Shown here: positions 2,819 to 29,013 of the stretch, piece by piece
Position numbering within the stretch: position 1 is the stretch's first letter
How the letters are laid out: each line of letters opens with the position of its first letter
Assembly: GCF_000146505.1 (NCBI RefSeq)
Contig: NC_017448.1
Coordinates: 2,970,001-3,002,000, forward strand
Direction of reading: 5' to 3'
From: Fibrobacter succinogenes subsp. succinogenes S85
Lineage (GTDB): Bacteria; Fibrobacterota; Fibrobacteria; Fibrobacterales; Fibrobacteraceae
Length of the DNA stretch: 32,000 nucleotides
Position numbers and translations under genes: made by a program
The notes under the pieces: generated by a model
What the model saw: only the letters and a program-made list of their open reading frames with translations
The model's database searches: none
Told to the model about the DNA's origin: nothing

Positions 2819-2847
2819 TCGTTTGCTATAGAACAATTACAAAAAAG

Positions 2848-2876
2848 GCTCCTCTCCAAAAGAGGAGCTTTTTTTT
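2848..2876 (+). terminator. Rho-independent terminator of the pilin-like gene
   Basis: Stem gctcctct (2848-2855), loop ccaaa, stem agaggagc (2861-2868), then T8 (2869-2876). Confidence 0.85.
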
Positions 2877-3095
2877 GTATCATCGAAAGTCTTGTTTCAA
2901 TGTTCTTCAAAACTGATTTGTCTATAGCCTCAAAATCGGATACCAACTTCACAAAATGCACCGCATTCAGCTTGGAAAAACAATATTTTCCCGAACGAGA
3001 AAAATCATCGTTCCGGCCGGCAATATTTTCTGAAATATTCCCGAGTGGGAATATTTTTATGCGCATTTTCATGCTTTAAAGTTTGGACTGTCAAA

Positions 3096-3127
3096 AACGT
3101 TAAAAGCCCTCCTGTCGGGAAGGCTTT
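3096..3127 (-). terminator. Possible (weak) terminator of the Rpn-like gene
   Basis: On the minus strand: aaagccttccc-gaca-gggagggcttt with one mismatch, followed by TTTTAACGTTTTT. It lies about 25 nt after the stop at 3151. Confidence 0.4.
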
Positions 3128-3150
3128 AGTTGTGCCATAATCGTATACTG

Positions 3151-4182: not shown

Positions 4183-4246
4183 ATAGTTAACACGTTTTTT
4201 TGGAGATTTTGGCTCACCTAATTTTGAAAAACTTTTGTAAAAAAAA

Positions 4247-6243: not shown

Positions 6244-6277
6244 TCATTGTATTGTTGCACGATTTTTGTGTAGCTTT

Positions 6278-7168: not shown

Positions 7169-7193
7169 AACGAAAATATATATTATCTATGTA

Positions 7194-7961: not shown

Positions 7962-7972
7962 CGGAATGGAAT

Positions 7973-8839
7973 ATGACAATATCGTGTGTTATTGTAAATT
8001 ATAATGATGCCGTTACGACAAAAAAATTGGTTAAACGGATTGAGGATTATCATTCTCTTAATTATGTTGTCATTGTTGATAACAACTCGCAGGATGATTC
8101 CGTGGCGCAATTAACCACGCTTGTTTCATCTAAGGTTGTTTTGATTAATGCAGAAAAAAATGGTGGTTATGGTTTTGGAAATAATCTTGGTGTTGAGTAT
8201 GCGTATGAAAAATTAAGATCGGATTATGTATTAATTGCTAATCCTGATGTTGAATTTGATGAATCTTGTTTGCTCAAACTTCTTGAATCGTTGAAAAAAA
8301 ATGAAAATGCCGCAATTTCTGCAGGACCTCAGATGAATGTGGATGGACGCCCTTGGCGAGATGTATCTGTGTGGAAGTATATTCTCAATATGAGCTTGTT
8401 TTTTGATGAATGGTTACATATTCGCTCGTATTCCTATAAGTTTTTTGAAGGAAAACAAGAATGTTTAGTATATGCAGTTCCTGGATCCTTGCTGTTAGTT
8501 GATGCCAAAAAGATGATGGAAGTTGGTGGCTATGATGAAGATTTCTTTCTTTATTATGAAGAACATGTGCTTGCTGAAAAAATGAAAAAAGCTGGCTATG
8601 GAACGGTTTTTAGACTTGATGCTGGTTATATTCATAATCATCATGTTAGTATTAGGAAGGCGTTTAAGAAATGGGGGCCACAACGGTTGTTGAGATGCAA
8701 AAGTTGCATGTTGTTTTTGAAAAAGTACAAGAATGTTTCTTGCTACACATTGTTGCTTGCGAAGTTATTTGTTCAATATGTGAAAATTGAAATGTTTTTC
8801 TATGATTTCTATCGCTGGATAAAACCCCTTAAGAAGTAA
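7973..8839 (+). CDS. GT2-family glycosyltransferase
   Basis: ISCVIVNYNDAVTTKKLVKRIED...VVIVDNNSQDDS...NGGYGFGNNLG...LIANPDVEF is the classic GT2 (rhamnosyltransferase-like) N-terminal fold pattern. Start at ATG 7973. Confidence 0.8.
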   Translation: MTISCVIVNYNDAVTTKKLVKRIEDYHSLNYVVIVDNNSQDDSVAQLTTLVSSKVVLINAEKNGGYGFGNNLGVEYAYEKLRSDYVLIANPDVEFDESCLLKLLESLKKNENAAISAGPQMNVDGRPWRDVSVWKYILNMSLFFDEWLHIRSYSYKFFEGKQECLVYAVPGSLLLVDAKKMMEVGGYDEDFFLYYEEHVLAEKMKKAGYGTVFRLDAGYIHNHHVSIRKAFKKWGPQRLLRCKSCMLFLKKYKNVSCYTLLLAKLFVQYVKIEMFFYDFYRWIKPLKK

Positions 8840-8849
8840 TGGTGGAATT

Positions 8850-9017
8850 ATGAAACGTACATTCCTTTCTCTTGATATTTTTGATACTTGCTTAATTCGC
8901 AAATGTGGAGAGCCTCGTAAGATATGGGATTTGATGGCAGATGAACTCTTTGATAAAGAAGATTATTGTGGCAGATTGTCTTTTGTAGGTAATAGAAGTG
9001 TTGTTGAAAAAAAATGA
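8850..9017 (+). CDS. 55-aa fragment carrying HAD-like motif I (LSLDIFDTCLIR); N-terminal piece of the next ORF
   Basis: My manual translation from ATG 8850 is MKRTFLSLDIFDTCLIRKCGEPRKIWDLMADELFDKEDYCGRLSFVGNRSVVEKK*. The stop TGA 9015-9017 overlaps ATG 9014 (ATGA), directly after the A8 run at 9007-9014. Confidence 0.5.
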   Translation: MKRTFLSLDIFDTCLIRKCGEPRKIWDLMADELFDKEDYCGRLSFVGNRSVVEKK

Positions 9018-10771
9018 TGGATGAAAATTTTTACCCTACATTGAATGATATTTATGATGAGTTGAATGTATCTCAATGGGGATTTGAATCTAGTCAAATT
9101 ATGCAATTAGAGATGGAATTAGAGGAAAGAGAACTTTGTCCTAATCCCCAAATGTTAGATGTTGTAAATAAATATCGATTAGAGGGTTTTTCTGTTTCTT
9201 TTATATCAGATATGTATTTGCCGTCTGTTTTTCTAAAAAAAATATTGGTGAAATATGGATTCTGCAAAGAAAATGAAAAAGTGTATGTGTCTGCAGAATG
9301 TAAGGCTTCTAAAAATGATGGTTCTTTGTTTGATTATGTATTTAAAGATACGGGAACAAAAGCAAAACAATGGATTCATTATGGTGATAATGAAAAATCG
9401 GATTATTTGGAACCGAAGTCTAAGGGCGTAAAGTCATTTTGGATAAAAAATACGTTGTTTACTGACGAGGAAAAAAGTTGGATAAGTGATGCTCGGTTTT
9501 ATACTCATAAACATGAAATTGAATTGTGGGCGGGATTGTGTCGATATGCTAGGGTTAACCTAGATGATTCTGAATGTACTGAACGTGCTGTAGATTTGAT
9601 ATCTAGTTTGTACATCCCTTATGTCCGATATATAATGGATGAGTCAAAGGAACGAAATATAAATGTTCTTTATTTTCTAGCTAGAGACGCTCATATTTTT
9701 TTGCAAATCGCTGAACAGTTCAAAAATCGTTATCCCAATATTGAATTAAAATATTTAAAATTGTCTAGACGCTCTTTATACCCATGCGTTTTTTATGAAG
9801 TAAATGATTACGAGATGGAATTGACCATATGCCAATGTATTGCGCAAACGGCAAAAAAGAGTGTGGAGTATATCGGGTTGGAATGGGAATCTCTTTCCCC
9901 AAAAACACGAAACCAATTTAAAGCTGATTATCGTTTTACGTCGGCCAGGAAGGCAAAAGCTTTTGCAAAGTGCCTAATTGAGAATGACCGCAAAATGATT
10001 CTAGAAAAGTCATCTAATTATCGTGGAATGCTTTTGGGATATTTAAGACAAGAAGGAGTCTTAGGCTTCAGAAAAATAGCATCTGTTGATTTGGGGTGGA
10101 TTGGCAGTTGCCGGTGCATATTGAACTATATTCTAAGGAAAGAAAAATATCGAACTTGCGATGCGTTTTATTGGGGAGCGAGTAATATATTGATGAAGGG
10201 AACGATTGAAGATCGATTGTATGTATTTCAACGACAATACGATATTAGTTATTATTCAAATGGAAGTGTCCTTTTTTTTGAACATTATGCATCGATAAAT
10301 GATGAAGAGTCTACTGTGGGATATAAAAAAAAGAAGAATGATTTTTTCCCTATTAAGAAGAAAACTAATGATGTTAATAAAGAAATGGTTGTTCAAAATG
10401 AAAGAGTTTTGACTTGGTTTGCAAAAAAATATATGTCAACCGCATTTGATCGCGAGGCAATGCGAGATATCTTTTTGTGTTGTGGTATGCGGCAACTTCA
10501 AAATTTACAGGATAATCCTAAATCGCGGGATTTAAAATTTTTTTCTTTTATTACGACAGAAAATTTTGGATGTGTTATTAAACTTGTTCAGCCGCTCTTG
10601 CTAAAAAATATTTTTGCTTTGTTGGTGTGGGGGATACCGGCAGAACCTCAGTGGTTGCCTGCTGCGGTAAAAAAATCTTTCGGTCCCTTTGCTGAATTAT
10701 TTGTAAAAACGTACAATTATACATCGCGAACAAAATTGGCTCATTTGCTTCGTTGGTGGTGGAATAGATAG
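9014..10771 (+). CDS. HAD-superfamily-like protein (remaining HAD motifs) with a large uncharacterised C-terminal domain
   Basis: FSVSFISDMYLP (motif II-like S), ...ECKASKNDGSLF (K) and IHYGDNEKSDY (GDxxxD motif IV-like) lie within the first about 130 aa. The rest is not recognised. Adding one A to the A8 run fuses it in frame to 8850, giving about 640 aa. Confidence 0.65.
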   Translation: MMDENFYPTLNDIYDELNVSQWGFESSQIMQLEMELEERELCPNPQMLDVVNKYRLEGFSVSFISDMYLPSVFLKKILVKYGFCKENEKVYVSAECKASKNDGSLFDYVFKDTGTKAKQWIHYGDNEKSDYLEPKSKGVKSFWIKNTLFTDEEKSWISDARFYTHKHEIELWAGLCRYARVNLDDSECTERAVDLISSLYIPYVRYIMDESKERNINVLYFLARDAHIFLQIAEQFKNRYPNIELKYLKLSRRSLYPCVFYEVNDYEMELTICQCIAQTAKKSVEYIGLEWESLSPKTRNQFKADYRFTSARKAKAFAKCLIENDRKMILEKSSNYRGMLLGYLRQEGVLGFRKIASVDLGWIGSCRCILNYILRKEKYRTCDAFYWGASNILMKGTIEDRLYVFQRQYDISYYSNGSVLFFEHYASINDEESTVGYKKKKNDFFPIKKKTNDVNKEMVVQNERVLTWFAKKYMSTAFDREAMRDIFLCCGMRQLQNLQDNPKSRDLKFFSFITTENFGCVIKLVQPLLLKNIFALLVWGIPAEPQWLPAAVKKSFGPFAELFVKTYNYTSRTKLAHLLRWWWNR

Positions 10772-10773
10772 TT

Positions 10774-11844
10774 TTATTTTCGAAAAAGTAATTTTTTTCG
10801 AAGTTGTGTGTCGGGTAATTTTAAAGCCTTCCAAATAAAAGCAATTAGACTGCCTTTTTCTCCGAGAATAACATTTCTCGCTATTTTTTCTGTGCTAAAT
10901 TTACATAGAATGCTGTAAAACTTAATGCATATGTTTAAATGGTTGACAAAAAATTTTACGCTTTTTGTTTTAATATGTTTTTTGAAAACTAAAATATCTT
11001 GTTTATGAATGCCTTTATTTACTTTATTTTTTGATTCAATGATATAGAGGTATATTGCGTTTCTTGTATATTGATCAATAAATAAATTTGCAATGTCGAT
11101 TCTCGCTTGGTCTAAAAAAAATGAAATCCGTTCTCTTAAATATTCGAATTGGATGTAGTTATCTCGAATTGGATTTTTTGCGAGATTGTTGACGATGCTC
11201 CCCTCTCTTGTTCGGTAATAATATGTTATTTCGTTTGTGAGAATAACTTTTGATGCTGAAAAAAAATATTTGTAAGTTGTATAATGGTCTTCGCAAATAG
11301 CGCCCTTAGGGAATAACCATTTTTTTGCAATGTCTTTTTTTATTAATTTATTCCATGCGACGACAACTTGTGTGAATAGAGGATGGCCAGGTTGATGGCA
11401 TTTTAATAAATTGAATAAAGACATCTCTATGATTTGTTTAGATGTCGTTTGATTTTGGTAATTTCCGGATTCTGTTGCTGTTATGTAATCTCCAATAACG
11501 ATATCTGGTTTTTGGGTCTGTACAATTTTGTAAAAAGACTCAATGGAATTGGTGGCAATCCAATCATCGCTATCCACAAAAGAAACGTATTCGCCTTTGC
11601 ATATATCCAACCCGGCGTTTCTTGCATCCGATAACCCGCCATTTTCCTTGTGAATTACCACAATGCGCTTATCTTTAGCTGCGTATTCATCGCAAATTTG
11701 CGGACAACCGTCAGGCGAACCATCATCAACCAGGATGATTTCTAAATTGGTATAGGTCTGGTTAACGATGCTGTCTAAGCAACGTCGAAGGTATGGTTCA
11801 ACGTTGTATATGGGGACTATGATGGAAACTAGAGGCTGGAACAT
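10774..11844 (-). CDS. GT2-family glycosyltransferase
   Basis: VSIIVPIYNVEPYLRRCLDSIVNQTYTNLEIILVDDGSPDG...GGLSDARNAGL...FVDSDDW is the textbook GT2 signature. Confidence 0.9.
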   Translation of the reverse strand: MFQPLVSIIVPIYNVEPYLRRCLDSIVNQTYTNLEIILVDDGSPDGCPQICDEYAAKDKRIVVIHKENGGLSDARNAGLDICKGEYVSFVDSDDWIATNSIESFYKIVQTQKPDIVIGDYITATESGNYQNQTTSKQIIEMSLFNLLKCHQPGHPLFTQVVVAWNKLIKKDIAKKWLFPKGAICEDHYTTYKYFFSASKVILTNEITYYYRTREGSIVNNLAKNPIRDNYIQFEYLRERISFFLDQARIDIANLFIDQYTRNAIYLYIIESKNKVNKGIHKQDILVFKKHIKTKSVKFFVNHLNICIKFYSILCKFSTEKIARNVILGEKGSLIAFIWKALKLPDTQLRKKLLFRK

Positions 11845-11846
11845 TG

Positions 11847-12764
11847 CTAATCCTGTTGGCTTAAATATAACTCAAGTTTCTCTTGTTGCTGCTTAAATTT
11901 TTGCTTGTTTGATTTTCGTAGACGTTCTAAATTCTGGACTTTCCATTGAATTGCGGGTAATGCTTGTACGTTGGGAATTGGAAAATTGGAGAAATCTTCA
12001 TTTAGCGCGAGAAAATCTAGAAATAGCTTTTTATATGGAACGAGATGTTCTTTGAGGTCTTTTTTCAATCGCAACAAAAAGTCCTGTAATTCAGAATAGT
12101 TGACCTGCTCGTCTGTCATGCCTGTGAATTCATTTTCAAATATGTCCTGATGGTCCTGAATTTCGCAATCTAGAAGCTCATGAATGGGTCGATTATGACC
12201 GAGTAGGTAAATGATGAAAATTTGAATTAATTTGTCGTTGATTCCGTGCTGAGCTTCATAGAATTTTTTTATATCAAATAGGTCTCGCGGGTGTTGTCTA
12301 TCCAATGCTGCGCAGAATTTTCCTGCATAAAGTTCCTCGAATGTTAGAATTCTCATTTTAGCGAATCCAAAGGAGTTTTGTACTTTCTGCGATACGGCTA
12401 ATTCTGTTGGTGTGCAAAGTGTTCCACGAATTGTGTAGTTTGGTTCGATTTTTATAGTAGCTTCGTTGTTGGAACAGATAATCTTCTTTTCGTTTGCCTG
12501 ACCTGTAATCGATGCTTGTAAGCCTTTTTTCTGAAGATTGCCTTGAATGCGTAGAAGGGCATTGTTTATGTTTTCAATTGCTGTTGTTCTTTTGTCGAGT
12601 GGTAAATACACCAAATCAAGATCAACGGAAAGTCTAGGCAAGTCCTGGTAAAACAGATTTATGGCGGAACCACCTTTTAGCGCAAAACAGGTCTCGTTTG
12701 CTACAATTGGAAGTGCGTTAACCAATAATGAAACTTGTTTTGTGTATTTTTCAGCGAAACTCAT
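11847..12764 (-). CDS. abiEii: AbiEii/AbiGii-family nucleotidyltransferase toxin (DUF1814)
   Basis: FALKGGSAINLFYQDLPRLSVDLDLVYLP is the GS-x(n)-DxD NTase motif of AbiEii. The gene lies immediately downstream (1-nt gap) of an AbiEi-like gene. Confidence 0.85.
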   Translation of the reverse strand: MSFAEKYTKQVSLLVNALPIVANETCFALKGGSAINLFYQDLPRLSVDLDLVYLPLDKRTTAIENINNALLRIQGNLQKKGLQASITGQANEKKIICSNNEATIKIEPNYTIRGTLCTPTELAVSQKVQNSFGFAKMRILTFEELYAGKFCAALDRQHPRDLFDIKKFYEAQHGINDKLIQIFIIYLLGHNRPIHELLDCEIQDHQDIFENEFTGMTDEQVNYSELQDFLLRLKKDLKEHLVPYKKLFLDFLALNEDFSNFPIPNVQALPAIQWKVQNLERLRKSNKQKFKQQQEKLELYLSQQD

Positions 12765-12765
12765 A

Positions 12766-13530
12766 TTAACCTAATTTAGGAATAACCAAATTGTATTTAG
12801 GGTAAAGTACACCTTCTTTGCCTATTTTGCGGATTCCGGAGCCGAGATCTATGTTGCTTTTGTCTAGAACGTTAGACCATTGCAAACCTGCGGTTTCTGC
12901 AAAACAGAGTAGAAGTCGTTTGACCTTTATAGAACTACATTTTTCCAGAAGTTCTTGCAATAGGGCTGTCTTTACGGAAATTATGGTTTCCGTTATGGCG
13001 AATGCTTCGGAAACAGTTATTTTTTTAGGGACGAGGTATAGAAGTTCTAACAGCGCTCGTTCCATTGACGGCACTTGTAATTTGAAATTTTCTCCTTTTT
13101 TCGTTTCCAAACCGATATCGGCAGGAAGGAAATCGGAATAGTTGATATCGGTGTTGTCCCCATAAACTTTCGTAAACCATGTAGGAACTTTCTTGCCGAG
13201 CGGGGTGAACAATTGAGTCCTATTTTCTGACTTTACATAATGCAGTTTGCCGTAATACAGGCTCAGTGCAGATGCTGCTCCTATATGGATGGTTGGTATT
13301 AGCTCTGCTTGAAGAGCGAATAGTGCTCCCATTATATCGGCGACTTCGTTTAGGCGGGTGTATGCCCCTGGCGCAATTCGGTTAAGCCAGCCTGATTTGA
13401 CGTATTCTGCGGCAAGCATGCGGCTAATCCCCATGGTAGCAAGCTGTCGTGAGGTTACTACCGTGTTTGCCGGTATCTGCTTCAATAGTTGTTTTATTTT
13501 TTTACTGTTTTGTATGTTCACAATATACAA
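12766..13530 (-). CDS. abiEi: AbiEi-family antitoxin / transcriptional regulator (type IV TA)
   Basis: The N-terminal wHTH VVTSRQLATMGISRMLAAEYVKSGWLNRIAPGAYTR is typical of AbiEi, and the protein is paired with AbiEii. The start is non-ATG (TTG 13530 or GTG 13521). Confidence 0.8.
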   Translation of the reverse strand: MYIVNIQNSKKIKQLLKQIPANTVVTSRQLATMGISRMLAAEYVKSGWLNRIAPGAYTRLNEVADIMGALFALQAELIPTIHIGAASALSLYYGKLHYVKSENRTQLFTPLGKKVPTWFTKVYGDNTDINYSDFLPADIGLETKKGENFKLQVPSMERALLELLYLVPKKITVSEAFAITETIISVKTALLQELLEKCSSIKVKRLLLCFAETAGLQWSNVLDKSNIDLGSGIRKIGKEGVLYPKYNLVIPKLG

Positions 13531-13565
13531 AATACATTATTTTTAAAGCAAAGGTCCAAATTTTT

Positions 13566-14525
13566 TTAGATAATGTTTACATTTTCTAAATCTGTTAGCC
13601 ATGTATCGTAAAAGCTAAAGTTCTTGCCGTAGGAATTGTCCATAAGATATACTTTTTTACCCATCATGGCCGATGCTATAGCTATATGTAGGCGGGTGGA
13701 GTAAATGGTGTCGTATTGGTTGATAAATTTAATGCAGTCTTTAATGTATTGTGGTCGATAAAAATGGGCTCGAATCAGGTCGATAAGACGATTGACGGAC
13801 TTGATGCCTTTTATGTTTGCAAAAAAGTTTAGCCATCCGACAATGTAGTCGGCGTGGGCATATTTGGGGGCTTTGTGCTCGATTGTCGGCCAATCGTGAA
13901 CTTCGGCGTTTTGTGGAATAAAACTTGGCCAAATGTCGTTCTTAAGTTCTTTATCGACTCTTTTGGCGTATAAAGATCGTTCTGTCTTGGCAGTGTTGAT
14001 TTTCCCAAATTTATCAAAGTCAATGAAAAACGCCATGTCGGGGACGAGAAGCACTTTGTTCTTGGGAAAATGTTCTTGCATAAATTTGAACGAAACCTTG
14101 TCGCGGGCGCACATTGTCACATTTGTGTGGTTTGCGAAAAAGAATTCGTCGGCCTTAATGTTTTCTTGGTGCTCGTACCAGACTGTTTGCGGGAAAATGA
14201 TGACTTTGTTGCTAGGGTATAGCTCAATGATTTTTTTGCGGAATGAGTGGGGGCCATTCCAGAGATCTCCGAAGTTTCCTCCGCCTTGCAAGAGAAATAA
14301 TGTGTGCTGTGGAATCTTATGGTTGTAAAAGGTAGTGCTGCCTGCACTATACAAACATTTGTATTTTAACTGTTTTAGGAATATTCTCGTTCCTTCCCAA
14401 ATGAGAGTATCGCCAATGTTTTCGTAATAAGGCAATTCAAGGTATGCGTAATCGGAATCAATCAACGTCAGTAGTTGATTGTTTATGATGCTTCGAAGTA
14501 GTTGGATTTTATCGGAATGTGTCAT
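13566..14525 (-). CDS. Polysaccharide pyruvyl transferase family protein
   Basis: NIGDTLIWEG...LLQGGGNFGDLW...IFPQT...ARD..S...STRLHIAIASAMMGKKV matches the PS_pyruv_trans (CsaB/WcaK-like) pattern. Confidence 0.8.
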   Translation of the reverse strand: MTHSDKIQLLRSIINNQLLTLIDSDYAYLELPYYENIGDTLIWEGTRIFLKQLKYKCLYSAGSTTFYNHKIPQHTLFLLQGGGNFGDLWNGPHSFRKKIIELYPSNKVIIFPQTVWYEHQENIKADEFFFANHTNVTMCARDKVSFKFMQEHFPKNKVLLVPDMAFFIDFDKFGKINTAKTERSLYAKRVDKELKNDIWPSFIPQNAEVHDWPTIEHKAPKYAHADYIVGWLNFFANIKGIKSVNRLIDLIRAHFYRPQYIKDCIKFINQYDTIYSTRLHIAIASAMMGKKVYLMDNSYGKNFSFYDTWLTDLENVNII

Positions 14526-15631
14526 TTGTGCCGAATTTTATTAAGTGTTGAGAATCCTTTTTGCAGAGCTTTGTTTGCTGATTCACGGATGCTCATTTCT
14601 GCATTGACTAATATTTTTTTCAATGCGCTATATTCTTCATTGTTCTCGTAAAGCTTTTGGGAGAGGAATTCCTTCATTTGTGGTTGAAGCCACTCTGTTC
14701 CATTATTGCATACTCGATTGCGTAAATCAGCGTATGTTGGAGCTTTTAAATCAGGTATGGTTCCGAGAGCAATCCAAGCATGGCCATTGAAACAATGGGG
14801 CTGTTGGCAATGACAACCTAAAGGTTTAAATTTTATAGGTTTTTCTACATCTTCCATGATGTTTTGGGAATATAGTCCATTGTAGCATTGGCCTAATATC
14901 CCGTTACCCATATCAAGACTTAACGTCCAATCACCGGCATGACAAAATTCCTTGCGTGGTTCGCCGAAAATGGAAAATTTGTAATCGAAAAGACTAGAGT
15001 TAAAAACACGCCATGTTTTTTTGTATTCTTCTCGGTTCATTTGTGTTAGAATATTCAATTTAGACATGTCGTGTTCATCACGTGCAACGGTGACGTGGCA
15101 TACAGCTCCGACTTCCTTGATTGCCAAATCCTGCATTTCTTGGATGTAGGGAATGAGCTCATCGGAAGGTGTTGCTTCTAACGTGAATGAGGCTCCTGCA
15201 TCGCGAACTTTGCGAATGTTATTGAAAAATTTATCAAACCAATTGCGTTCTTTTAATTGCAAGTAATGGTATGAAAATTTGAAAAAAAGTCTATTTAGCA
15301 GTTCTTTCGGAAATTTGGAAAATTCATCAAAAGCTTTGTCTATGGTTGCGTTGGTTACAACCATCACATAATGTCCTTCTTCAAGGACTGCTTTGATATA
15401 GCTAGGCATTTCTGGCGGTAATAATGTTTCTCCTCCTCCACAAAAATTTAGAAGGCATGTGCCACCAAGTCGTTCTTTAGAAAGGGCTTTACGAAATGTT
15501 TCTACGTCGTACTTGAATTTAGGAAGCTTGTTTGCGAATAATCTATGATGCGTGATGTAGCAATAGTGACACCTTAACGTGCAGGCTTCAACTGGAACAT
15601 AAATGTCGATAAACCTTTTCAATTTGTCCAT
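14522..15631 (-). CDS. Radical SAM enzyme with C-terminal Cys-rich (SPASM/twitch-like) region
   Basis: CTLRCHYC is the CxxxCxxC motif at residues 17-24, with GGGETLL downstream. The C-terminal CHAGDW-x-GNGILGQC has C-x13-G-x4-C spacing and is followed by GCHCQQPHC. The gene has a 4-nt ATGA overlap with the pyruvyl transferase gene. Confidence 0.85.
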   Translation of the reverse strand: MDKLKRFIDIYVPVEACTLRCHYCYITHHRLFANKLPKFKYDVETFRKALSKERLGGTCLLNFCGGGETLLPPEMPSYIKAVLEEGHYVMVVTNATIDKAFDEFSKFPKELLNRLFFKFSYHYLQLKERNWFDKFFNNIRKVRDAGASFTLEATPSDELIPYIQEMQDLAIKEVGAVCHVTVARDEHDMSKLNILTQMNREEYKKTWRVFNSSLFDYKFSIFGEPRKEFCHAGDWTLSLDMGNGILGQCYNGLYSQNIMEDVEKPIKFKPLGCHCQQPHCFNGHAWIALGTIPDLKAPTYADLRNRVCNNGTEWLQPQMKEFLSQKLYENNEEYSALKKILVNAEMSIRESANKALQKGFSTLNKIRHK

Positions 15632-15634
15632 TTG

Positions 15635-16402
15635 TCACTCCATAATAAAAGTGCATCCGTAAAATGCAAGGTAGTAAACAAGTATGCGGAACATTGCTGC
15701 GTTCCAAAAATTAAGAGCCCATTCGTGCGTAAATATGACTAAAACATTGTCTTGTATATGGGACCATACTTTTAATAACGGGAAAAGATGGTGTTCTGTT
15801 CTAAAATCAGTTTTTTCAAAGGTCATAGATGCGTACGATATCGCTTGCTTTTGTAGTAAGGAATCGTTTACTGATGGCGGTAGGGAGTAGCTGATTCGGT
15901 TGTCATCTGCGGAAAGTAATTTGGTTACCCCTTTACTTTTTAGAAAACTGATATCATCAAAAGAACTGTGAAAATAATGCAGTCTTAATGTTTTTGCTAT
16001 TAGGGATGGTGGGATATTGTTTTCAAAATAGAGATAACCGTTTTGAAAGTTTGAAGAATTGTCGTTTTTAGATTCAGGATTGTCGCTGTGATAGCCGATT
16101 TTGATCCAATTTGATTGGTTTAGCTCTTTTATGTACTTTGTTGGAATTTCTGATATGGCCCAATTTTCTGCGTTTGGAAATGTATATAGTGTGAATTTTG
16201 CTTCGGTAATGTCGTGGATTGATTTAAGATAGTGAAATGTCGGTTGGTCGTATATGGAACCGTATTTTTCGTTTTTCAAGTCAATAAATGATGTATAGAA
16301 ATCATCAATGGATAGATGTACCTCTTTCCCGTTTAGAAATGAAAATGGGAATGCAAAAAATAAAAAGAATAGAATTATTGGTATGATATATCTTTTTTTC
16401 AT
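15635..16402 (-). CDS. Signal-anchored hypothetical protein, possibly NodB/CE4-like polysaccharide deacetylase fold
   Basis: There is an N-terminal hydrophobic anchor (IIPIILFFLFFAFPF). Motifs in order are HLSIDD, GYHSDNPE, LRLHYF, SADDN and IFTHEW, loosely paralleling NodB motifs 1-5. ATGA overlap with the flippase gene. The functional call is weak. Confidence 0.45.
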   Translation of the reverse strand: MKKRYIIPIILFFLFFAFPFSFLNGKEVHLSIDDFYTSFIDLKNEKYGSIYDQPTFHYLKSIHDITEAKFTLYTFPNAENWAISEIPTKYIKELNQSNWIKIGYHSDNPESKNDNSSNFQNGYLYFENNIPPSLIAKTLRLHYFHSSFDDISFLKSKGVTKLLSADDNRISYSLPPSVNDSLLQKQAISYASMTFEKTDFRTEHHLFPLLKVWSHIQDNVLVIFTHEWALNFWNAAMFRILVYYLAFYGCTFIME

Positions 16403-17928
16403 TTTTTCAGCTTTTGCCGGAGTATAAGATATATCGCTCCGCGTTCTTCTTTAGAGAAGATGAAAAATAAATTGATTGATAATGCTACGATGGATATGAT
16501 GATGAATGATGATATAAATGAAAACCATGTGTCAATTGGCAGAATATTTTTAACTCCGTAACTAGTCAGGGTGACAATCAGCATGCCCAAACAACCTTTA
16601 CCCATGACGGGGAAGAATGTGTACCATTTTTGATTAAGACATGTGGCCCCATAAATAGTGGTGAAAAACATATTGCGTAATCCTCCCTGAATAGCCCCTG
16701 TAATGGCAATCGTCCAAACTCCTAGGTCTGTTGTTGCTAGGAGAATGAAGATTGCTAGGGTGTTCAAAATACCAGCGATTAATAGGACTATGGATGGAAT
16801 TTTAAGTTTATTCGTTGCTGGGAAAACTCCAAATATCGGATTGACGCTCCCGCCAATAATCATTGGTAAAATTGTTACCACGGTAAGCCAGTAAAGAAAA
16901 TTTGCATCTTCTCCAGGAACCCAAAGTGTATAGAATTCTTTGCTGTAAACTAATAAAAATCCTATCGGTATTCCGATTAGCAATCCGACAATTTTCATTG
17001 ATTTTTTGATTTCATATACAAGTTCTGACGTTTTATCTTGTGCTAATAGAATGTTGAATTGAGGAAAAAACGTTCCAGAAAGCATTGCCAATGCACTATA
17101 GATAAAAAGTGGTGCGGTCTTGGCTATGGAATAGCTTCCCATGACAGAAACGCCGATGAAAATATTAGTGATTAGTAAATCAACTTGCTGCAATAAAATG
17201 CTGCTTAATTGGTTTACGGAATTCCATATGCCTGAGAAAAAGACTTCTTTTAGATGAATTAAGGAAAAATGTTTTTGTGGGGCGAAGGTTAGTTCTGGTA
17301 ATAATTTTTTCTTGAAAGAAAGATTAAAAAATAAAAACAGGATAGCTGAAAAGAATGCTCCGATGCTTAAATAGACGATAGATGGTTTTAGGAAGTAAAA
17401 CAGGGCAAGGATGACTGCAACTCTTGCGCATTCAGCAATGACACTTCTTGATGCGGTCATATCAACTCTATTTTTTACGAAAGTTCCGATGCCTAGAATT
17501 CCTGTAAGAAGTCCGATGATTAACGATGCTGAACCAAATCCAAATAAATAGCGAACTTCGGTGATGAGATTTGTTGGTACAGTTATGAATGCGTCTGTAT
17601 AAATGATGAAAATGATTGCGGTGATTGTGAATATTACCGATAACAGTGTGTTTGCTACCCAGACTGAGTTAAAATATTTATTGGCCCCATCGATGTCCTG
17701 CTTGTATATTCGCATCGTGATAAAACGACCTGCCATGGAGCCGATTGCGGTTGTCAGTATGGACGAATAACCTATGATGCTGTTGATGAGGGGGATAAAC
17801 CCGTAAGCTTCTTTTCCGACAGTTCTAATGAGGTAGGGAGTTAGTAAAAATGAAATGATAAAATTCACCCCAAACGAGGTGATGTTGAAAAGAAGATTCT
17901 TGAGGGTTTGTGAAGAAGATGATGACAT
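16399..17928 (-). CDS. Wzx-like oligosaccharide flippase (MOP/polysaccharide biosynthesis protein family)
   Basis: A 509-aa protein with about 12-14 TM segments and short loops. It is the first gene of the glycan operon, with the size and topology of Wzx flippases. Confidence 0.7.
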   Translation of the reverse strand: MSSSSSQTLKNLLFNITSFGVNFIISFLLTPYLIRTVGKEAYGFIPLINSIIGYSSILTTAIGSMAGRFITMRIYKQDIDGANKYFNSVWVANTLLSVIFTITAIIFIIYTDAFITVPTNLITEVRYLFGFGSASLIIGLLTGILGIGTFVKNRVDMTASRSVIAECARVAVILALFYFLKPSIVYLSIGAFFSAILFLFFNLSFKKKLLPELTFAPQKHFSLIHLKEVFFSGIWNSVNQLSSILLQQVDLLITNIFIGVSVMGSYSIAKTAPLFIYSALAMLSGTFFPQFNILLAQDKTSELVYEIKKSMKIVGLLIGIPIGFLLVYSKEFYTLWVPGEDANFLYWLTVVTILPMIIGGSVNPIFGVFPATNKLKIPSIVLLIAGILNTLAIFILLATTDLGVWTIAITGAIQGGLRNMFFTTIYGATCLNQKWYTFFPVMGKGCLGMLIVTLTSYGVKNILPIDTWFSFISSFIIISIVALSINLFFIFSKEERGAIYLILRQKLKK

Positions 17929-18042
17929 TAGGGATGATTATTTTGGCGAATCGCGGTCATAATATGGTTGTAATATAGATTAAAAGTCCTATGATGCAGC
18001 CTATATATGTGGAATATGGTCAAATTTTGGCTTTTTGCGGTT

Positions 18043-18066
18043 AAACCCCTCGAAATCGAGGGGTTT
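18043..18066. other. Perfect 10-bp stem / 4-nt loop hairpin between divergent transcription units
   Basis: aaacccctcg-aaat-cgaggggttt read directly from the sequence. No convincing T-run follows on either strand. Confidence 0.5.
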
Positions 18067-18124
18067 GGTTTATTGAAAAGTGAAAAAATCCGGTTTAGGT
18101 TTGTTTTTATATATTTTATTAACG

Positions 18125-18346
18125 ATGGACGAAAAATCGCAAATCATCTATATGCAGACTAGGCTTACGCGTCTTGCGGCGGAAAGGTGGAAAATGTCGA
18201 TTCCGCAGGTTGCAACCCTTTTTGAAGAAAAGGGGGTGTATCATTATATCGCGAAGATGTGGGATTTGTTCCATGTAGAGGGTGATTTAGCTGTACTTGA
18301 CGATGTAAAGCAGTATCTTGACGCGAAGGGGGCTATCTGTGGTTGA
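18125..18346 (+). CDS. DUF3791-like small protein
   Basis: MDEKSQIIYMQTRLTRLAAERWKMSIPQVATLFEEKGVYHYIAKMWDLFHVEGDLAVLDDVKQYL matches my memory of DUF3791, which partners with DUF3990. Start is taken as ATG 18125, not the track start at 18080. Confidence 0.65.
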   Translation: MDEKSQIIYMQTRLTRLAAERWKMSIPQVATLFEEKGVYHYIAKMWDLFHVEGDLAVLDDVKQYLDAKGAICG

Positions 18347-18902
18347 TATCTTGAAAGATGGAGACATCCTTTACCATGGTAGCTTTTGCGAAGTACAAAC
18401 TCCTGATTTACAGATGTGCGCTCGTTATAAGGATTTTGGTCAAGGCTTTTACCTGACAACTGACAAGAAACAGGCCGAATCCTTTGCTAAAATTTCTACG
18501 CAGAAGGCTATAGAAAATGGCGTTGTCGCAAGTCAAAGATTTGGCGTTGTCTCTGCATTTCGGTATAATGTAGGCGTCAATCTTAATATCAAAATTTATG
18601 AGACTGCTGATTCATCTTGGCTTCATTGTGTAGTCGCTCATCGGAAGAAAAATGTTTTCGCTGATGTGCTGGGAGATTGCTCTAAATATGATGTTATTGG
18701 GGGCAAAATTGCAAATGATGCAACCAATAGTACGATTGTGACTTATATGGCGAATGCGTTTGGCGAGATTGGCTCTGCCTCTGCAGATGATATTTGCATT
18801 CGGTTGTTACTTCCAGAGCGATTAAAGAATCAGTATTGCTTCAAGTCTAATGCCGCATTGAACCAACTGTCGTTTATGGGGAGTGAACGTGTATGGATGT
18901 AA
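18339..18902 (+). CDS. DUF3990-like protein with ADP-ribosyltransferase-like H-G-S / G-x-G-F-Y motifs
   Basis: ILYHGS (His codon at 18375-18377), DFGQGFYLTTDKKQAESFA (18435-18458 and following), YDVIGGKIANDAT, ...LKNQYCF. The start is ambiguous (TTG 18318, GTG 18339 or TTG 18351). It overlaps both neighbouring genes. Confidence 0.7.
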   Translation: MVDILKDGDILYHGSFCEVQTPDLQMCARYKDFGQGFYLTTDKKQAESFAKISTQKAIENGVVASQRFGVVSAFRYNVGVNLNIKIYETADSSWLHCVVAHRKKNVFADVLGDCSKYDVIGGKIANDATNSTIVTYMANAFGEIGSASADDICIRLLLPERLKNQYCFKSNAALNQLSFMGSERVWM

Positions 18903-19147
18903 TGACTGATCGCATTAATGCAGCCATTGACTTGCTTACTACGATGGTTGTTGAAAGCATAGCAAAAGAGGATGGTTGTGATGCATCCGATGTTTTGCCT
19001 GGCTTTTTACGCTCGCATACGGGACAAATGCTCTATAATGAAAGTAGCAAGCTTTGGTGGGATGGCCCCGCATTTATAGAGGAACTATACCGTCAGGAAC
19101 TATCTAAAACGTCCGTTCGCGCACAACGTATTGCGGTGACTGGTTGA
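18893..19147 (+). CDS. Second DUF3791-like small protein
   Basis: ...FLRSHTGQMLYNESSKLWWDGPAFIEELY resembles the DUF3791 C-terminal pattern. The ATG overlaps the DUF3990 stop (ATGGATGTAA). The last about 14 codons run into the 3' end of the convergent GT gene. Confidence 0.55.
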   Translation: MDVMTDRINAAIDLLTTMVVESIAKEDGCDASDVLPGFLRSHTGQMLYNESSKLWWDGPAFIEELYRQELSKTSVRAQRIAVTG

Positions 19148-23618: not shown

Positions 23619-23748
23619 TGCTCTACACATCCCTAATTGTTTACAAAGCGTAATATATAATTTCTTTGGGAGTGTTGTGCAATTTCTTTGAGGTTTATTA
23701 CAATACCAATATGGTTTTTATAGGAAGCTTTGATTTTAGATGTAGTAC

Positions 23749-25224
23749 TCATTTTACCTCCCAATGGCCGCCTTTGTCGGGGCCTACACGTTTAATGATT
23801 CCTTTTTGTTCCATTTTTTTCATATTCTTATTTACATGAATGCGGCTGATTCCTACGATAGTTGCAATTTCGTCTTGAGACACTGACGGATCTTGCTTAA
23901 TTATCAATAAAATTTTTCTTTGGTTTTCTGTAACCTTTTCTGTAACCTTTTCTGTAACCATTGGTGAGTTTTCGGATTCGTTTCTGGAAATTTCTTGTGT
24001 CTCTTTTCTCCAGATGATGGTTTTAAAGTCGTCGTCATCTTGGAATAGAGGCTTTTTTAAACCGTATTGTAGGCATTGCTTTACAATGTCTCCTGTCCCG
24101 GTTCCCGTCTTTTCTATGTATCCACAACGTTGCATGGCTTCTGCGATAAGAGGATTATGAGGAAGAGATTTGTGAGGCTTGTAGAGCTTATCTATTGTTA
24201 GTCCATGTGGTAATTGTCCTGGATTCCAAATTTCTAGACGATTTCTGAAAAGCATTACTTGAACGCTTGCTTTACTTGTGTAGTCGCGGTGACAGACTGC
24301 GTTGACAATGGCTTCTTTTACGGCCTCCATAGGAAGTTCTGGATGTGTGGGGACTGCTGCGGTTAGGCCTTGTGCTCTTGTTCCTATCCAATTGTCAACG
24401 CGGCTCAGTACAAAACTCGTTGCTTGGTCAATCAGTTGAAAGACATCGCCTTTGTAGATTTGTAATGAAGGAATTGGTTTTTCAACTTTGTTTCCATAAA
24501 ATTGGGCGCATTTTACTTCTGAGGTGATAAAGAATTTTTGAGGTTTTTTGCCGAAAAGGAGAATGGATGCGTTGGCTAATTTGCCTTTTTCATCAATCAT
24601 ATCTAAATGTCGTAAGAAGTTCTCAACGGGGGTGTCGGAACTTAGTTTAAAATTACGTCTTTGTTTTGAAAGCTGGATGAAATTTCGAACTTTCTCTTCG
24701 TCAATATCGTCTATGGTAGCCTCGTTATTTTTGGCTTGATCAAAAGGACCTGTTCGAATGAGTTCTTTCTCTTCCATGTAAAGAACAAGGGCTTTATATA
24801 CAGCATTTTTCAATTCATCATAGTCGGTAAATGAACGCCTCACGTTGTTCTTTTCAACTTTTTGAATGAATTTTATCTCTTTGGGGTGTCTTTGTGAATT
24901 GTCTTTTTTGATGAATATAAGGCATGTTTTATGTAGCTTGTTTGCAAGATTGTATTCCTTTTCTGTGGGGGATATGCTGTTTTTCGATGCCGTGCCATAT
25001 TCGTTACCCAAAAGTCCTAGATATATATCGCTTTTCTCGACTTCTTTAAGATAAATGTCATAGGTTTTGCTGTTGCTTGCTGGATGATTTTCAAAGATGA
25101 ATGGCTTGAAAAATAACGACAATATTGGGTCGTTCGTTAAGTATGAGAATAGCTGTTTGCGTTCTTCGGCAAATTCCCTTTGTACGCTTGAAATAAATAT
25201 TTGAAATTTCATAAATCCTTCCAT
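23749..25224 (-). CDS. DUF4062-like N-terminal domain fused to a COG2865-type HATPase_c_4 domain and C-terminal winged HTH
   Basis: The N-terminus KFQIFISSVQREFAEERKQL...SDIYLGLLGNEYG fits the DUF4062 pattern. The middle is ...ASILLFGKKPQKFF...CAQFYG. EAIVNAVCHRDY...LEIWNPGQLPHG...HNPLIAEAM...GYIEKTGTGTGDI fits the HATPase_c_4 pattern. The C-terminus is ENQRKILLIIKQDPSVSQDEIATIVGISRIHVNKNMKKMEQKGIIKR. aaggag lies 6 nt upstream of ATG 25224. Confidence 0.7.
   Translation of the reverse strand: MEGFMKFQIFISSVQREFAEERKQLFSYLTNDPILSLFFKPFIFENHPASNSKTYDIYLKEVEKSDIYLGLLGNEYGTASKNSISPTEKEYNLANKLHKTCLIFIKKDNSQRHPKEIKFIQKVEKNNVRRSFTDYDELKNAVYKALVLYMEEKELIRTGPFDQAKNNEATIDDIDEEKVRNFIQLSKQRRNFKLSSDTPVENFLRHLDMIDEKGKLANASILLFGKKPQKFFITSEVKCAQFYGNKVEKPIPSLQIYKGDVFQLIDQATSFVLSRVDNWIGTRAQGLTAAVPTHPELPMEAVKEAIVNAVCHRDYTSKASVQVMLFRNRLEIWNPGQLPHGLTIDKLYKPHKSLPHNPLIAEAMQRCGYIEKTGTGTGDIVKQCLQYGLKKPLFQDDDDFKTIIWRKETQEISRNESENSPMVTEKVTEKVTENQRKILLIIKQDPSVSQDEIATIVGISRIHVNKNMKKMEQKGIIKRVGPDKGGHWEVK
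23924..23959. repeat. 12-bp x3 perfect tandem repeat (ttttctgtaacc) encoding VTEK-VTEK-VTEN in the linker before the wHTH
   Basis: Read directly from the sequence. It is in frame within CDS 23749-25224. Confidence 0.9.
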
Positions 25225-25328
25225 TTTTACTCCTTTAATTTTTCGAAAATTTTAACGCCCTTAAATTTATACTCCTCGCAATTTCACTGTCAAGGGGGCG
25301 GACTTTTGTTGGTGTGTTTATTGAAATG

Positions 25329-25376
25329 ATGCACCTCTTGCTTCTATTAAAATTTTGAATTATATTATAGGTGCAT
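25329..25376. promoter_or_regulatory. 8-bp inverted repeat ATGCACCT ... AGGTGCAT (32-nt spacer) upstream of the XRE-ImmA gene; candidate operator
   Basis: Read directly from the sequence: 25329-25336 and 25369-25376. It lies in the divergent promoter region, ending 18 nt before ATG 25395. Confidence 0.35.
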
Positions 25377-25394
25377 TAAAATTATGAGGATTAA

Positions 25395-26393
25395 ATGCAG
25401 GTTTATAGATGTGATGAATTAGCTGTAGTGACGCCACCTGGGCGGCATCTTGCTGAAAAAATTGAAGAAATGGGCCTTGATGCCAATGATTTGGCTGCAC
25501 GCATGGGCTACACGCCCAAGGCGGTGAATGACATTTTACAGGGAAATTGCCGAATCACGCCCGAATCGGCCATTTCTCTTGAAATGGTTACGGAAATACC
25601 TGCTGGGTTTTGGCTGCGTAGTCAGATGGCTTACGACGAATTTTTGTCGCGTGAGAAAATTAAGGCTTCGCTTATGGATCAGTCCCTTTGGAAAAAGTCT
25701 TTCCCCGTGGAACTTGATGTCCGCGAATGGGTTCGACAAAAAAAGGATGAAAGCAAATCTTTGATGCCTCTGTTGAAGTTCTTTGCGGTGGCATCTCCGC
25801 AGGCATGGGATGGTTATTACAAAAAGGCGCAACTGAAGGTGGCGTTCCGTATTTCGCTTGCGGAGGTAAAGGACCCGTATGCGACTTCGGCATGGATTCG
25901 CCGAGGCGAGATTCTGTCGGATCAGGATCCGATGGAAAAGCTGGGGCAGCCTGCGGTTCGTAAAAAGCTTAAGGCGGCGCTTCCTGAAATTATTGCGTTT
26001 GCGGCTGCAAACAAGAAGTTGCCGAAGCGCGAAAAGCGTATCACCTACTGGACGCCTGAGGCGGAAGTGGTTGACGACTGCATGACTGGCTTGCAAGAGT
26101 TATGCCGCAAAATAGGTATTCGCGTGCTTTTTGTACAGAATTTCAAGAGCTCGCCGATTCACGGCATGTACCGTTGGTACAAGGATGTCCCGCTAATCCA
26201 ATTGCACGACCGCTTTAAAAAGCGTGAAACGATGTGGTTTACATTCTTCCATGAACTTGCGCATGTGCTTTACCATGGCAAGAAGGGAATCTGTTTACAG
26301 AACATCGAAATCACGCACAACTATCCCGAAAAAGAGGACGAGGCCAACTGCTTTGCGCAGAAGTGCATGCTGGAGGCGGGTTTCGACGCTTAG
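25395..26393 (+). CDS. HigA-type XRE HTH domain fused to an ImmA/IrrE (COG2856, M78) zinc metallopeptidase domain
   Basis: PGRHLAEKIEEMGLDANDLAARMGYTPKAVNDILQGNCRITPESAISLEMVTEIPAGFWLRSQMAYD fits the HigA/VapI antidote pattern. C-terminal FTFFHELAHVLYHG carries HExxH. gagga lies 5 nt upstream of the ATG. Confidence 0.8.
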   Translation: MQVYRCDELAVVTPPGRHLAEKIEEMGLDANDLAARMGYTPKAVNDILQGNCRITPESAISLEMVTEIPAGFWLRSQMAYDEFLSREKIKASLMDQSLWKKSFPVELDVREWVRQKKDESKSLMPLLKFFAVASPQAWDGYYKKAQLKVAFRISLAEVKDPYATSAWIRRGEILSDQDPMEKLGQPAVRKKLKAALPEIIAFAAANKKLPKREKRITYWTPEAEVVDDCMTGLQELCRKIGIRVLFVQNFKSSPIHGMYRWYKDVPLIQLHDRFKKRETMWFTFFHELAHVLYHGKKGICLQNIEITHNYPEKEDEANCFAQKCMLEAGFDA

Positions 26394-28518: not shown

Positions 28519-29013
28519 TTATTCTTTTCCGCCGGGTGTTGTGATGGGCGTAGTCGTGTTGCTCAGTCGTTTAAAATTCGGAGTCAATGCGTCACTGCAT
28601 TTGGTGACGTCGGTGTTGGAGGCCCAGAAAAAGACGTGTTGGGAGCCACCTTCGAGCGAGTAGTTGATGAACCATTTGTTGCCAGTCGTGCAGTCGTTCA
28701 GGTTCACGGTAGATTCTGCGGCCCAGTTGTAAATGCCTTCCGTGGCGTCGTAAAGGAAATTTGTGGAGCCCGCAATTCCTCGGCTGTTACCTGCGGGAGA
28801 CTTGTAACCGATGTCGTGCCAACTGCCCCCCTTGCCGTGTTCTGAAACGTATGTCTCTAGTAACTTGGTGTAGGTGCCTGCGGCAAGGCTGATTTCGGAA
28901 GCTTTGGCTTTGTCGAAAAGACCGAAAAGTTTCGGTACGGCGATGGCTGCAAGGACGCCCATGATGACGACTGCGACCATTAATTCGATAAGGGAAAACC
29001 CTTTTTTCTCCAT
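28519..29013 (-). CDS. Type IV pilin-like protein, paralogue of 2315-2818
   Basis: MEKK-G|FSLIELMVAVVIMGVLAAIAVPKLFG...KAKASE...AAGTY.KL...YV.E.G...W..IGY..P...LNDC...C.ALTPNF is shared with the first pilin, including the C-terminal Cys pair. Confidence 0.85.
   Translation of the reverse strand: MEKKGFSLIELMVAVVIMGVLAAIAVPKLFGLFDKAKASEISLAAGTYTKLLETYVSEHGKGGSWHDIGYKSPAGNSRGIAGSTNFLYDATEGIYNWAAESTVNLNDCTTGNKWFINYSLEGGSQHVFFWASNTDVTKCSDALTPNFKRLSNTTTPITTPGGKE

Follow-up and report, generated by a model that had tools for sequence, protein, structure and literature searches.

Do two genes that are transcribed away from each other in the chromosome of Fibrobacter succinogenes S85 form one two-gene system, or do they stand back to back as separate elements? 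The question is raised by a stretch of 32,000 nucleotides (CP001792.1, ~2.53-2.56 Mb; called the window in the following, to which all coordinates refer unless a contig is named). In it, an open reading frame (ORF) of 491 amino acids (aa) on the minus strand (gene A, 23749-25224; the identical protein is annotated in CP001792.1) and an ORF of 332 aa on the plus strand (gene B, 25395-26393) diverge from a spacer of 170 bp. An initial annotation of the window had taken the two for an inserted pair of a sensor protease and an effector-regulator. We consider it probable that they are two independent elements: gene A would be a stand-alone defence gene with an NADase of the NIR type on a chassis of a GHKL module and a winged helix-turn-helix (wHTH) domain, and gene B a toxin-less fusion of a helix-turn-helix (HTH) domain and a protease. 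By its architecture, gene A is a variant, and a very widespread one, of the single-gene defences with DUF4062/NIR that were newly defined. Its parts are located as follows:

23749-25224, minus strand: gene A, DUF4062(NIR)-GHKL(PF13749)-wHTH, called with 491 aa; probable length 487 aa, with M5 at 25212 as the start
24760-25212, minus strand: DUF4062 / NIR TIR-like domain and following helices, ~residues 5-155 (Pfam PF13271, KpSwz profile match, Foldseek)
24952-24972, minus strand: SPTEKEY motif with the putative catalytic glutamate E88 (alignment to KpSwz E97, family invariance)
23995-24747, minus strand: GHKL-type ATPase module, ~residues 160-410 (Pfam, PADLOC pAgo model, PDB 3lmm)
24280-24315, minus strand: N-box EAIVNAVCHRDY of the GHKL module
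24085-24117, minus strand: G-box IEKTGTGTGDI of the GHKL module
23935-23994, minus strand: low-confidence linker with EKVT repeat (predicted local distance difference test score, pLDDT, < 50 at residues 410-429)
23752-23934, minus strand: C-terminal MarR-like wHTH (HTH_24, MarR, Foldseek matches to the MarR family)

The true start of gene A is probably M5 (25212), because MKxIKIFISS is how the family opens and because GGAAGGA is found before the ATG of M5. DUF4062 (PF13271; residues 8-94, E 8e-21, 74.5 bits against a gathering cut-off of 24.7), HATPase_c_4 (PF13749; residues 319-400, E 4e-22, 78.6 bits) and HTH_24 (residues 433-478, E 8e-13; MarR, E 2.5e-7) were all recognised above the gathering cut-offs of Pfam, and no match to the Schlafen AlbA_2 domain (PF04326) was obtained with Pfam at E <= 0.1. 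The linker before the wHTH (residues ~411-430) contains a 12-nt EKVT repeat, the copy number of which depends on the strain and results in proteins of 483, 487 or 491 aa.

Swarozyc, Evangelion and Vulcan are single-gene defences in which DUF4062 has been described as a TIR-like NADase that serves as the effector (10.64898/2026.05.01.722283, 10.64898/2026.06.25.731849, 10.64898/2026.09.04.749371), and in these 2026 preprints the defence activity depends on one glutamate residue (KpSwz E97, Eva01 E87, Vulcan E98). A profile of the gene A family matches the structure of KpSwz (10wc_A, E 2e-9) over residues 2-179 only, KpSwz having 326 aa, and E88 of gene A is thereby aligned with chain residue 82 (+15 = E97), the catalytic glutamate. 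E88 is invariant in 29/29 aligned homologues, and so are the IFISS aromatic motif and DIYLG. The AlphaFold2 (AF2) model of gene A is of moderate quality (pLDDT 77) and features alternating strands and helices over residues 7-132. Foldseek related the model to TIR-STING (7un8, 9lmq) and to a 2'-deoxyribosyltransferase (7o62, TMt 0.60), with further matches to the catalytic core of histidine kinases and to MarR winged helices; within the moderate quality of the model, the N-terminal domain has an alpha/beta fold similar to that of TIR domains and nucleoside deoxyribosyltransferases (NDT).

The central module belongs to PF13749, which is a Bergerat-fold GHKL ATPase in SLFN-pAgo; there, ATP is bound via a glutamate and an asparagine four residues apart, which leads to tetramerisation and renders the fused Schlafen nuclease active (10.64898/2026.05.29.728809). 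The occurrence of this module in SLFN-pAgo explains why residues 161-412 of gene A align to the PADLOC models for pAgo and Aga. Both residues of the ExxxN box of gene A, E304 and N308, are invariant across the aligned homologues and would be equivalent to E314 and N318 of RzAgo; the G-rich box is retained as well. The COG2865 protein DIP2311 (PDB 3lmm) was matched by the sequence profile (E 2e-6) as well as by Foldseek (E 2e-14).

As far as the single proteins are concerned, the initial annotation is thus in good agreement with our analysis. Hidden Markov models recovered both ORFs and every domain that had been named (DUF4062, HATPase_c_4, wHTH, HigA HTH, Peptidase_M78). The N-terminus of gene A is the supposed conflict-associated DUF4062 module with TIR/NDT-like character (Pfam, KpSwz profile, Foldseek, preprints), and for the pocket region suspected there the structural model returned TIR-STING and 2'-deoxyribosyltransferase folds (AF2, Foldseek). 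The remainder of the protein corresponds, as had been assumed, to the C-terminal part of COG2865-type proteins (PF13749 plus HTH, match to 3lmm).

From these features the following course of events can be proposed for gene A. Sensing of a phage-derived protein or nucleic acid would fall to the C-terminal wHTH, alone or together with the GHKL module; the wHTH is plausible as a sensor by analogy. Binding of ATP by the GHKL module (PF13749) would then cause oligomerisation, the oligomer would gather the N-terminal DUF4062/NIR TIR-like domains for hydrolysis of NAD+ via E88, and growth of the infected cell would stop (abortive infection). TIR-like NADases are activated by oligomerisation. The GHKL module would provide a nucleotide-dependent oligomerisation switch, and an effector swap is the most economical reading: gene A presumably represents a Schlafen-GHKL-HTH ('Schlatpase'/COG2865) chassis, the Schlafen nuclease of which was exchanged for an NIR NADase. 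We incline, by a little, to the view that gene A on its own founds a new and very widespread defence family of this build.

The extent of the family is not in doubt. More than 4995 database clusters were found at E < 1e-5, and 120/120 of the matches listed carry both PF13271 and PF13749; outside Fibrobacter the listed matches share 50-63% identity with gene A, and those with a name are Bacteroidales. Relatives are encoded in the genomes of at least 583 GTDB species, which range over Bacteroidota, Kiritimatiellae, Lentisphaerae, Gemmatimonadota, Planctomycetota and methanogenic archaea, and the family is common in gut Bacteroidales. Homologues with 46% identity reside on conjugative plasmids of Legionella beside parB and rep. 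On one of them, the conjugative MOBF/MPF_F plasmid NZ_CP021280.1 of Legionella pneumophila (L114), a full-length homologue (6992-8506, 46%) is annotated as 'ATP-binding protein' and adjoins parB and rep; on several pLPP-type plasmids the homologue appears split into two coding sequences ('ATP-binding protein' and 'DUF4062 domain-containing protein'). In the phage collection no full-length gene A was present, only homologues of its GHKL-wHTH portion.

A constant partner of gene A did not emerge from a synteny survey of 80 loci with a homologue. Pfam and PADLOC scans revealed no recurrent family among 147 immediate neighbours with 175 Pfam families, an all-vs-all clustering of the 391 neighbours at +/-3 produced a largest family that is present in 10/80 loci at varying positions, and no small conserved ORF clustered upstream of the homologues in the survey. 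The commonest neighbours are components of type I restriction-modification (R-M) systems (Methylase_S 6, HsdM_N 5, N6_Mtase 4, HsdR-type ~3), and three immediate neighbours are Eco57I-type (type IIG R-M) enzymes; such R-M components, in ~10/80 loci, are the sole recurrence in the survey. Among the sample contexts, one is an island with a type IIG R-M system and an integrase, one lies within a glycosyltransferase cluster, and in one the homologue is flanked by dxs and trkA. By tblastn with gene B, an M78 domain was found near the homologues in 0/80 loci, and 79/80 loci are without any B-like gene. The exception is a Bacteroidota metagenome-assembled genome from Guaymas (L060), where the B-like gene is cut by the contig end; at one further locus a HigA HTH lies 4.4 kb away. 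In L060, positions 3-799 of the minus strand are occupied by a complete HigB-like gene of 113 aa and by the truncated HigA-M78-like gene, which has 38% identity to B, and divergent from this module a 195-aa GIY-YIG-like ORF followed by the homologue of A occupies positions 1088-3349 of the plus strand.

Within Fibrobacter, gene A is a recent horizontal and self-contained acquisition in a variable slot at the head of a glycan operon. When S85 is compared with a sibling contig in which the slot is filled differently (L008), the differing segment is essentially the ORF of gene A (23733-25215). Between S85 and a second contig with gene A (L005), 14/483 codons of the gene differ (4 nonsynonymous, 10 synonymous), as compared to 10-17% of the codons of the flanking genes. 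Gene A is of full length and has retained every family-invariant residue.

The base composition separates the two genes. Gene A (38% GC; 36% at third codon positions, GC3) and the spacer (31% GC) are the sole AT-rich parts of the pair region, whereas gene B (49%, GC3 56%) is near the adjacent wecE (52% / 61%) and GH3 (55% / 63%) genes. Of the claim that the pair is richer in AT than its flanks, the part on gene A and the spacer therefore stands and the part on gene B does not. The host-like composition of gene B next to an AT-rich gene A indicates that the pair did not arrive as a unit, and insertion of both genes in one step, as had been proposed, is not supported; the two differ in divergence age as well. 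The AT-richness beside wecE is moreover not specific to gene A, since wecE and its operon belong to a glycan cluster, the distal 18 kb of which are AT-rich themselves.

Gene B has a history of its own, for which the following features are relevant:

25395-26393, plus strand: gene B, HigA-type HTH and ImmA/IrrE M78 peptidase (Pfam, NCBIfam, PADLOC)
25434-25637, plus strand: HigA-type HTH of gene B (TIGR02607)
26103-26372, plus strand: M78 peptidase domain of gene B (Peptidase_M78)
26250-26264, plus strand: HELAH motif, an intact HExxH at residues 286-290
25395-25403, plus strand: ATGCAGGTT, junction of the deletion of a 107-aa HigB-like gene (alignment of S85 and L005 with L008)

The HigA domain of gene B (TIGR02607, residues 14-81) scored 49.7 bits against a curated cut-off of 47.7 in NCBIfam, and Peptidase_M78 was matched at residues 237-326 (E 1e-10, Pfam); the best PADLOC model was PD-Lambda-2_B (E 9e-17), followed by RmrA (E 4e-9). 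The description of gene B as a HigA-HTH/M78 fusion with an intact HExxH, next to a 170-bp spacer that in S85 does not contain any HigB-like ORF, is confirmed. By exact-sequence look-up, the identical 332-aa protein is encoded on many Fibrobacter contigs, and its divergent neighbour varies: it is gene A in S85, L005 and L006, and a 517-aa gene together with a 63-aa gene in L008, L009 and L011. Orthologues with 81-92% identity fill the best 120 database matches, and all of those for which the source is named come from Fibrobacter. In every inspected lineage without gene A, a 107-aa gene is located 8 bp upstream of B on the same strand. Its product is weakly but consistently similar to HigB/RelE (Pfam HigB-like_toxin, E 0.0035; Proteus HigB structures, E 0.02), and we call it HigB-like because of these weak matches and the position of the gene. 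The upstream divergent neighbour of this higB/B bicistron varies and can be gene A, the gene for the 517-aa or for a 178-aa protein, that of an ABC-2 permease, or just the DegT gene. Gene B is a long-resident, genus-wide gene of Fibrobacter, and its natural partner is the HigB-like gene, not gene A.

How the partner was lost can be read from the alignments. In L008, ATGCAGGTT starts both higB and B; in S85 and L005, the upstream region of higB is joined straight to the coding sequence of B at this 9-mer. In the S85 lineage, the HigB-like gene was evidently removed by a clean 9-bp microhomology deletion, that is, it would have been excised between the two ATGCAGGTT start sequences of the Fibrobacter-wide bicistron, a 107-aa HigB-like gene followed by HigA-HTH::M78 of the PD-lambda-2 A/B or RosmerTA type. 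Gene B would now be expressed from the old higB promoter while still under strong selection. In comparisons with five sibling contigs (L005, L006, L008, L009, L011), the codons of gene B differ synonymously in 30-33 cases and nonsynonymously in 0, as against 83-93 synonymous and 20 nonsynonymous differences in the GH3 gene next to it and 5 nonsynonymous ones in wecE; between two lineages without higB, the numbers for gene B are 33 and 0. Gene B is therefore under very strong purifying selection and is not decaying, even without its HigB-like partner.

A comparison of gene neighbourhoods accordingly does not bear out the combination of a sensor protease with an effector-regulator: orthologues of B elsewhere have other neighbours and are paired with the 107-aa HigB-like gene, and among the 80 loci of A there was no M78 domain and one truncated B-like gene. 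The two-gene system is not supported because the homologues of A and B are not syntenic elsewhere.

The region between the two genes has the following features:

25225-25394, no strand: divergent spacer of 170 bp (alignments, consensus promoter matches)
25293-25264, minus strand: cargo-side TTGACA-18-TAAATT site (consensus promoter match); this half also has a ribosome-binding site (RBS)
25355-25382, plus strand: B-side TTGAAT-16-TAAAAT (consensus promoter match); this half also has ATTAAAATT(T/A)TGA direct repeats

The B-side half is conserved in 5/5 lineages compared. On the cargo side, ~100 bp are common to three unrelated divergent genes, namely gene A and those for the 517-aa and the 178-aa protein (window 25225-25330; L008 8341-8440; L101 4500-4600). 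Among what they have in common are the TTGACA box (CTGTCAAGGG), the RBS AAAGGAG and, as ATGGAAGGA or ATGGAAAGA, the first codons; judged by these alignments, the arrangement resembles a single expression slot in which the cargo can be exchanged. Apart from the promoter-consensus matches, the search for operator and terminator signals in the spacer returned only short AT-rich repeats, and neither the promoter matches nor the repeats were enriched over shuffled sequence. The 517-aa gene (L008 6787-8340, minus strand; also in L009 and L011) occupies the slot of gene A and is followed by the 63-aa ORF. Its product has GHKL-like motifs (IQNFYDS, GYFGEGFK) and a C-terminal HEMSH motif; the GHKL reading rests on these motifs and on a match to HATPase_c_3 that is below threshold (E 0.06). 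No significant PADLOC or NCBIfam match was obtained for the 107-aa, 517-aa, 178-aa and 63-aa proteins.

Several observations weigh against the independence of the two genes or the defence function of gene A. All three contigs with gene A are without higB, and B is strongly constrained there; the three are closely related, however, and the shared loss of higB may be a single event. In L060, a higB/HigA-M78 module is located ~1 kb from a homologue of A, which is only the second co-occurrence among the 80 loci. R-M genes make up only ~10-15% of the immediate neighbours of the homologues, and several homologues are found between housekeeping genes or, as gene A itself in S85, inside glycan clusters; the sparse R-M neighbours and these contexts leave room for a regulatory role of the wHTH. 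Finally, the NADase activity of gene A, its binding of and dependence on ATP, its trigger and its defence phenotype are all inferred.

Of the alternatives, the one that survives best assigns to gene A chiefly the control of transcription, as a regulator of the COG2865 type: the wHTH would bind DNA, DUF4062 and the GHKL module would have nucleotide-sensing or regulatory functions, and in S85 the protein may control the downstream wecE glycan operon. The C-terminal MarR-like wHTH would suit such a function, as would the position of gene A at the head of this operon (118 bp separate it from wecE, which is downstream and has the same orientation), the location of a homologue with 63% identity within a glycosyltransferase cluster, and the many homologues in co-directional gene arrays. 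The family-wide invariance of the catalytic glutamate and of the ATP-binding residues of the GHKL module favours an enzymatic function, however, and the neighbours are unrelated between loci, unlike those of a dedicated pathway regulator. In sibling strains, the same glycan operon operates with the place of gene A empty or taken by an unrelated gene. The HTH/winged auxiliary domain of Swarozyc, moreover, binds a phage portal protein and not DNA (2026 DUF4062 preprints). We regard a mainly regulatory gene A as unlikely.

The shared promoter could also be understood such that the HigA-M78 gene, together with its conserved spacer, constitutes a 'sentinel plus expression slot' that is fixed, whereas the effectors (the three cargoes named above) are swapped under a common promoter and RBS. 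After the loss of HigB, B would have been kept for controlling or neutralising the divergent cargo, in the manner of RosmerTA and with exchangeable effectors encoded divergently in trans. This arrangement we consider distinctly improbable. A further alternative, that of the initial annotation, is a functional two-gene system of A and B. In it, the HigA-HTH of B would act as a repressor on the divergent promoter region common to both genes and, on a phage or stress signal, the M78 domain would cleave B itself or A (for example in the flexible linker of A), so that the NADase is set free or induced. Such a system would account for the divergent arrangement across 170 bp, for the purifying selection on B in the three contigs that have A and no higB, and for the cargo-side promoter and RBS kept before three different genes beside B; the module ~1 kb divergent from an A homologue in the distant L060 would fit, and ImmA-type antitoxins are known to pair with many toxins (PMC10440598). 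Against it stand 79 of the 80 loci, in which A does without a B-like gene, and the absence of M78 from the recurrent neighbour families. Orthologues of B are genus-wide with a variable divergent neighbour or none, the HigB-like protein being the constant partner, and A and B contrast sharply in composition and in divergence age. The module of L060 has retained its HigB-like gene and is separated from the A homologue by another ORF, and the spacer (87.6%) is less conserved than the coding DNA of B (97%). A functional pair is, in our opinion, very improbable. A region in which nothing is active, B being an orphan antitoxin in decay and A a leftover of horizontal transfer that no longer functions, might be thought of in view of the lost toxin gene and the foreign composition of A, yet it is hardly credible given 0 nonsynonymous against 33 synonymous differences in B between two higB-less lineages, its intact HExxH, and a full-length gene A with all family-invariant residues and 4 nonsynonymous against 10 synonymous differences.

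Gene B and the convergent GH3 gene have 4 bp in common. The flanks of the pair comprise glycan-synthesis, GH3, pilin-like, glycogen synthase and LolA genes. The pilin-like gene (28519-29013, minus strand) encodes a 164-aa protein with a type IV pilin-like N-terminal methylation motif (FSLIELMVAV) in otherwise carbohydrate-related surroundings. No integrase or phage genes are present within +/-10 kb of the pair, and in the absence of these and of excisionase genes over the same distance a prophage or an integrative and conjugative element (ICE) with an ImmR/ImmA switch is ruled out as its context. Positions 500-19000 of the window (~18 kb) have 31-45% GC compared to ~53% elsewhere, and the proximal annotated part of this segment encodes glycan synthesis (flippase, radical SAM, pyruvyl transferase). 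The segment probably represents a polysaccharide locus that has been exchanged horizontally. At its sharp GC step (~19000), within the glycan cluster, a DUF3791/DUF3990 gene pair is located (~18080-18902, plus strand). This pair is absent from L005 and L006, and an AbiEii gene is found at the matching place in L008 and L009; the site is a second variable slot of the glycan cluster, with genes resembling toxin-antitoxin or Abi genes.

If the proposed function of gene A holds true, gene A joins two defence themes that were reported separately in 2026, the DUF4062/NIR NADase effector and the ATP-driven GHKL oligomerisation switch of the very abundant Schlafen-GHKL-HTH proteins, and represents a natural effector swap on one chassis. 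Because the family is large, one validated member would annotate thousands of proteins now called 'DUF4062 domain-containing' or 'ATP-binding'. The Fibrobacter locus in turn offers natural variants of an almost isogenic kind (with and without higB, and with three cargo genes behind one promoter), which can serve to ask for the role of HigA-M78 proteins once their HigB-like partner is gone.

Among known systems, gene B resembles PD-lambda-2, in which a third gene accompanies those for a HigA-HTH::peptidase and a HigB-like protein (Vassallo et al. 2022, PMC9519451), and the RosmerTA class, in which ImmA-type antitoxins are paired with many different toxins (PMC10440598). In common with both, it has a HigA-like HTH fused to a C-terminal M78 domain, and sibling Fibrobacter strains carry a HigB-like gene directly upstream in the same operon, the partner that S85 has lost. 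In PD-lambda-2 the HTH-peptidase is, unexpectedly, the toxic component and is neutralised by the HigB-like protein, and the third component (PD-lambda-2C) is required for defence (PMC9519451). Gene B differs in being without this third gene, the convergent GH3 gene following directly, and no PD-lambda-2C-like gene was present in any Fibrobacter locus examined. The 107-aa HigB-like protein matches no PADLOC model, and the Fibrobacter module is chromosomal and genus-wide and not on a mobile element. The architecture of gene B has thus been described as PD-lambda-2 A/B or RosmerTA-type, and S85 holds only a truncated, toxin-less version of it. The combination of an M78 peptidase with an HTH is also known from ImmR/ImmA of ICEBs1 and from phage repressor/anti-repressor switches; in gene B a single protein combines the two, its HTH being HigA-type, and a HigB-like protein was the ancestral partner.

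Gene A shares with Swarozyc, Evangelion and Vulcan the N-terminal DUF4062, the IFISS aromatic motif, the catalytic glutamate and a C-terminal auxiliary region, and likewise is a stand-alone gene of patchy horizontal distribution that also occurs on plasmids. DUF4062 acts in Vesta and some Avs proteins, too, and ~20% of DUF4062 genes are near defence genes (2026 DUF4062 preprints). The main texts of these preprints describe no member with the architecture of gene A, and their supplements contain no mention of HATPase, Schlafen or Fibrobacter. The auxiliary region differs: it is a GHKL module of ~250 aa plus a MarR-like wHTH in gene A, a small HTH/winged domain in Swarozyc, a short region in Evangelion and HEAT repeats in Vulcan. 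The layout of Swarozyc, in which stalk helices and the small auxiliary domain come straight after DUF4062, is not that of gene A, as the likeness to KpSwz stops at residue 179 and the ~250-aa GHKL module is inserted before the wHTH.

The GHKL module is also a constituent of the Schlafen-GHKL 'Schlatpase' supradomain, which is present in ~60,000 proteins of prokaryotes; most of them have an HTH at the C-terminus, and some are encoded in type I R-M operons (10.64898/2026.05.29.728809). Gene A resembles the Schlatpase-HTH/COG2865 proteins (DIP2311, 3lmm) in its PF13749 GHKL module with ExxxN and GTGT boxes and the C-terminal HTH that follows; 3lmm is its best structural match, and some of its homologues, too, are embedded in type I R-M operons. 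The Schlafen AlbA_2 nuclease domain of these proteins is absent from gene A, and DUF4062 has taken its place, which argues for gene A as an effector swap.

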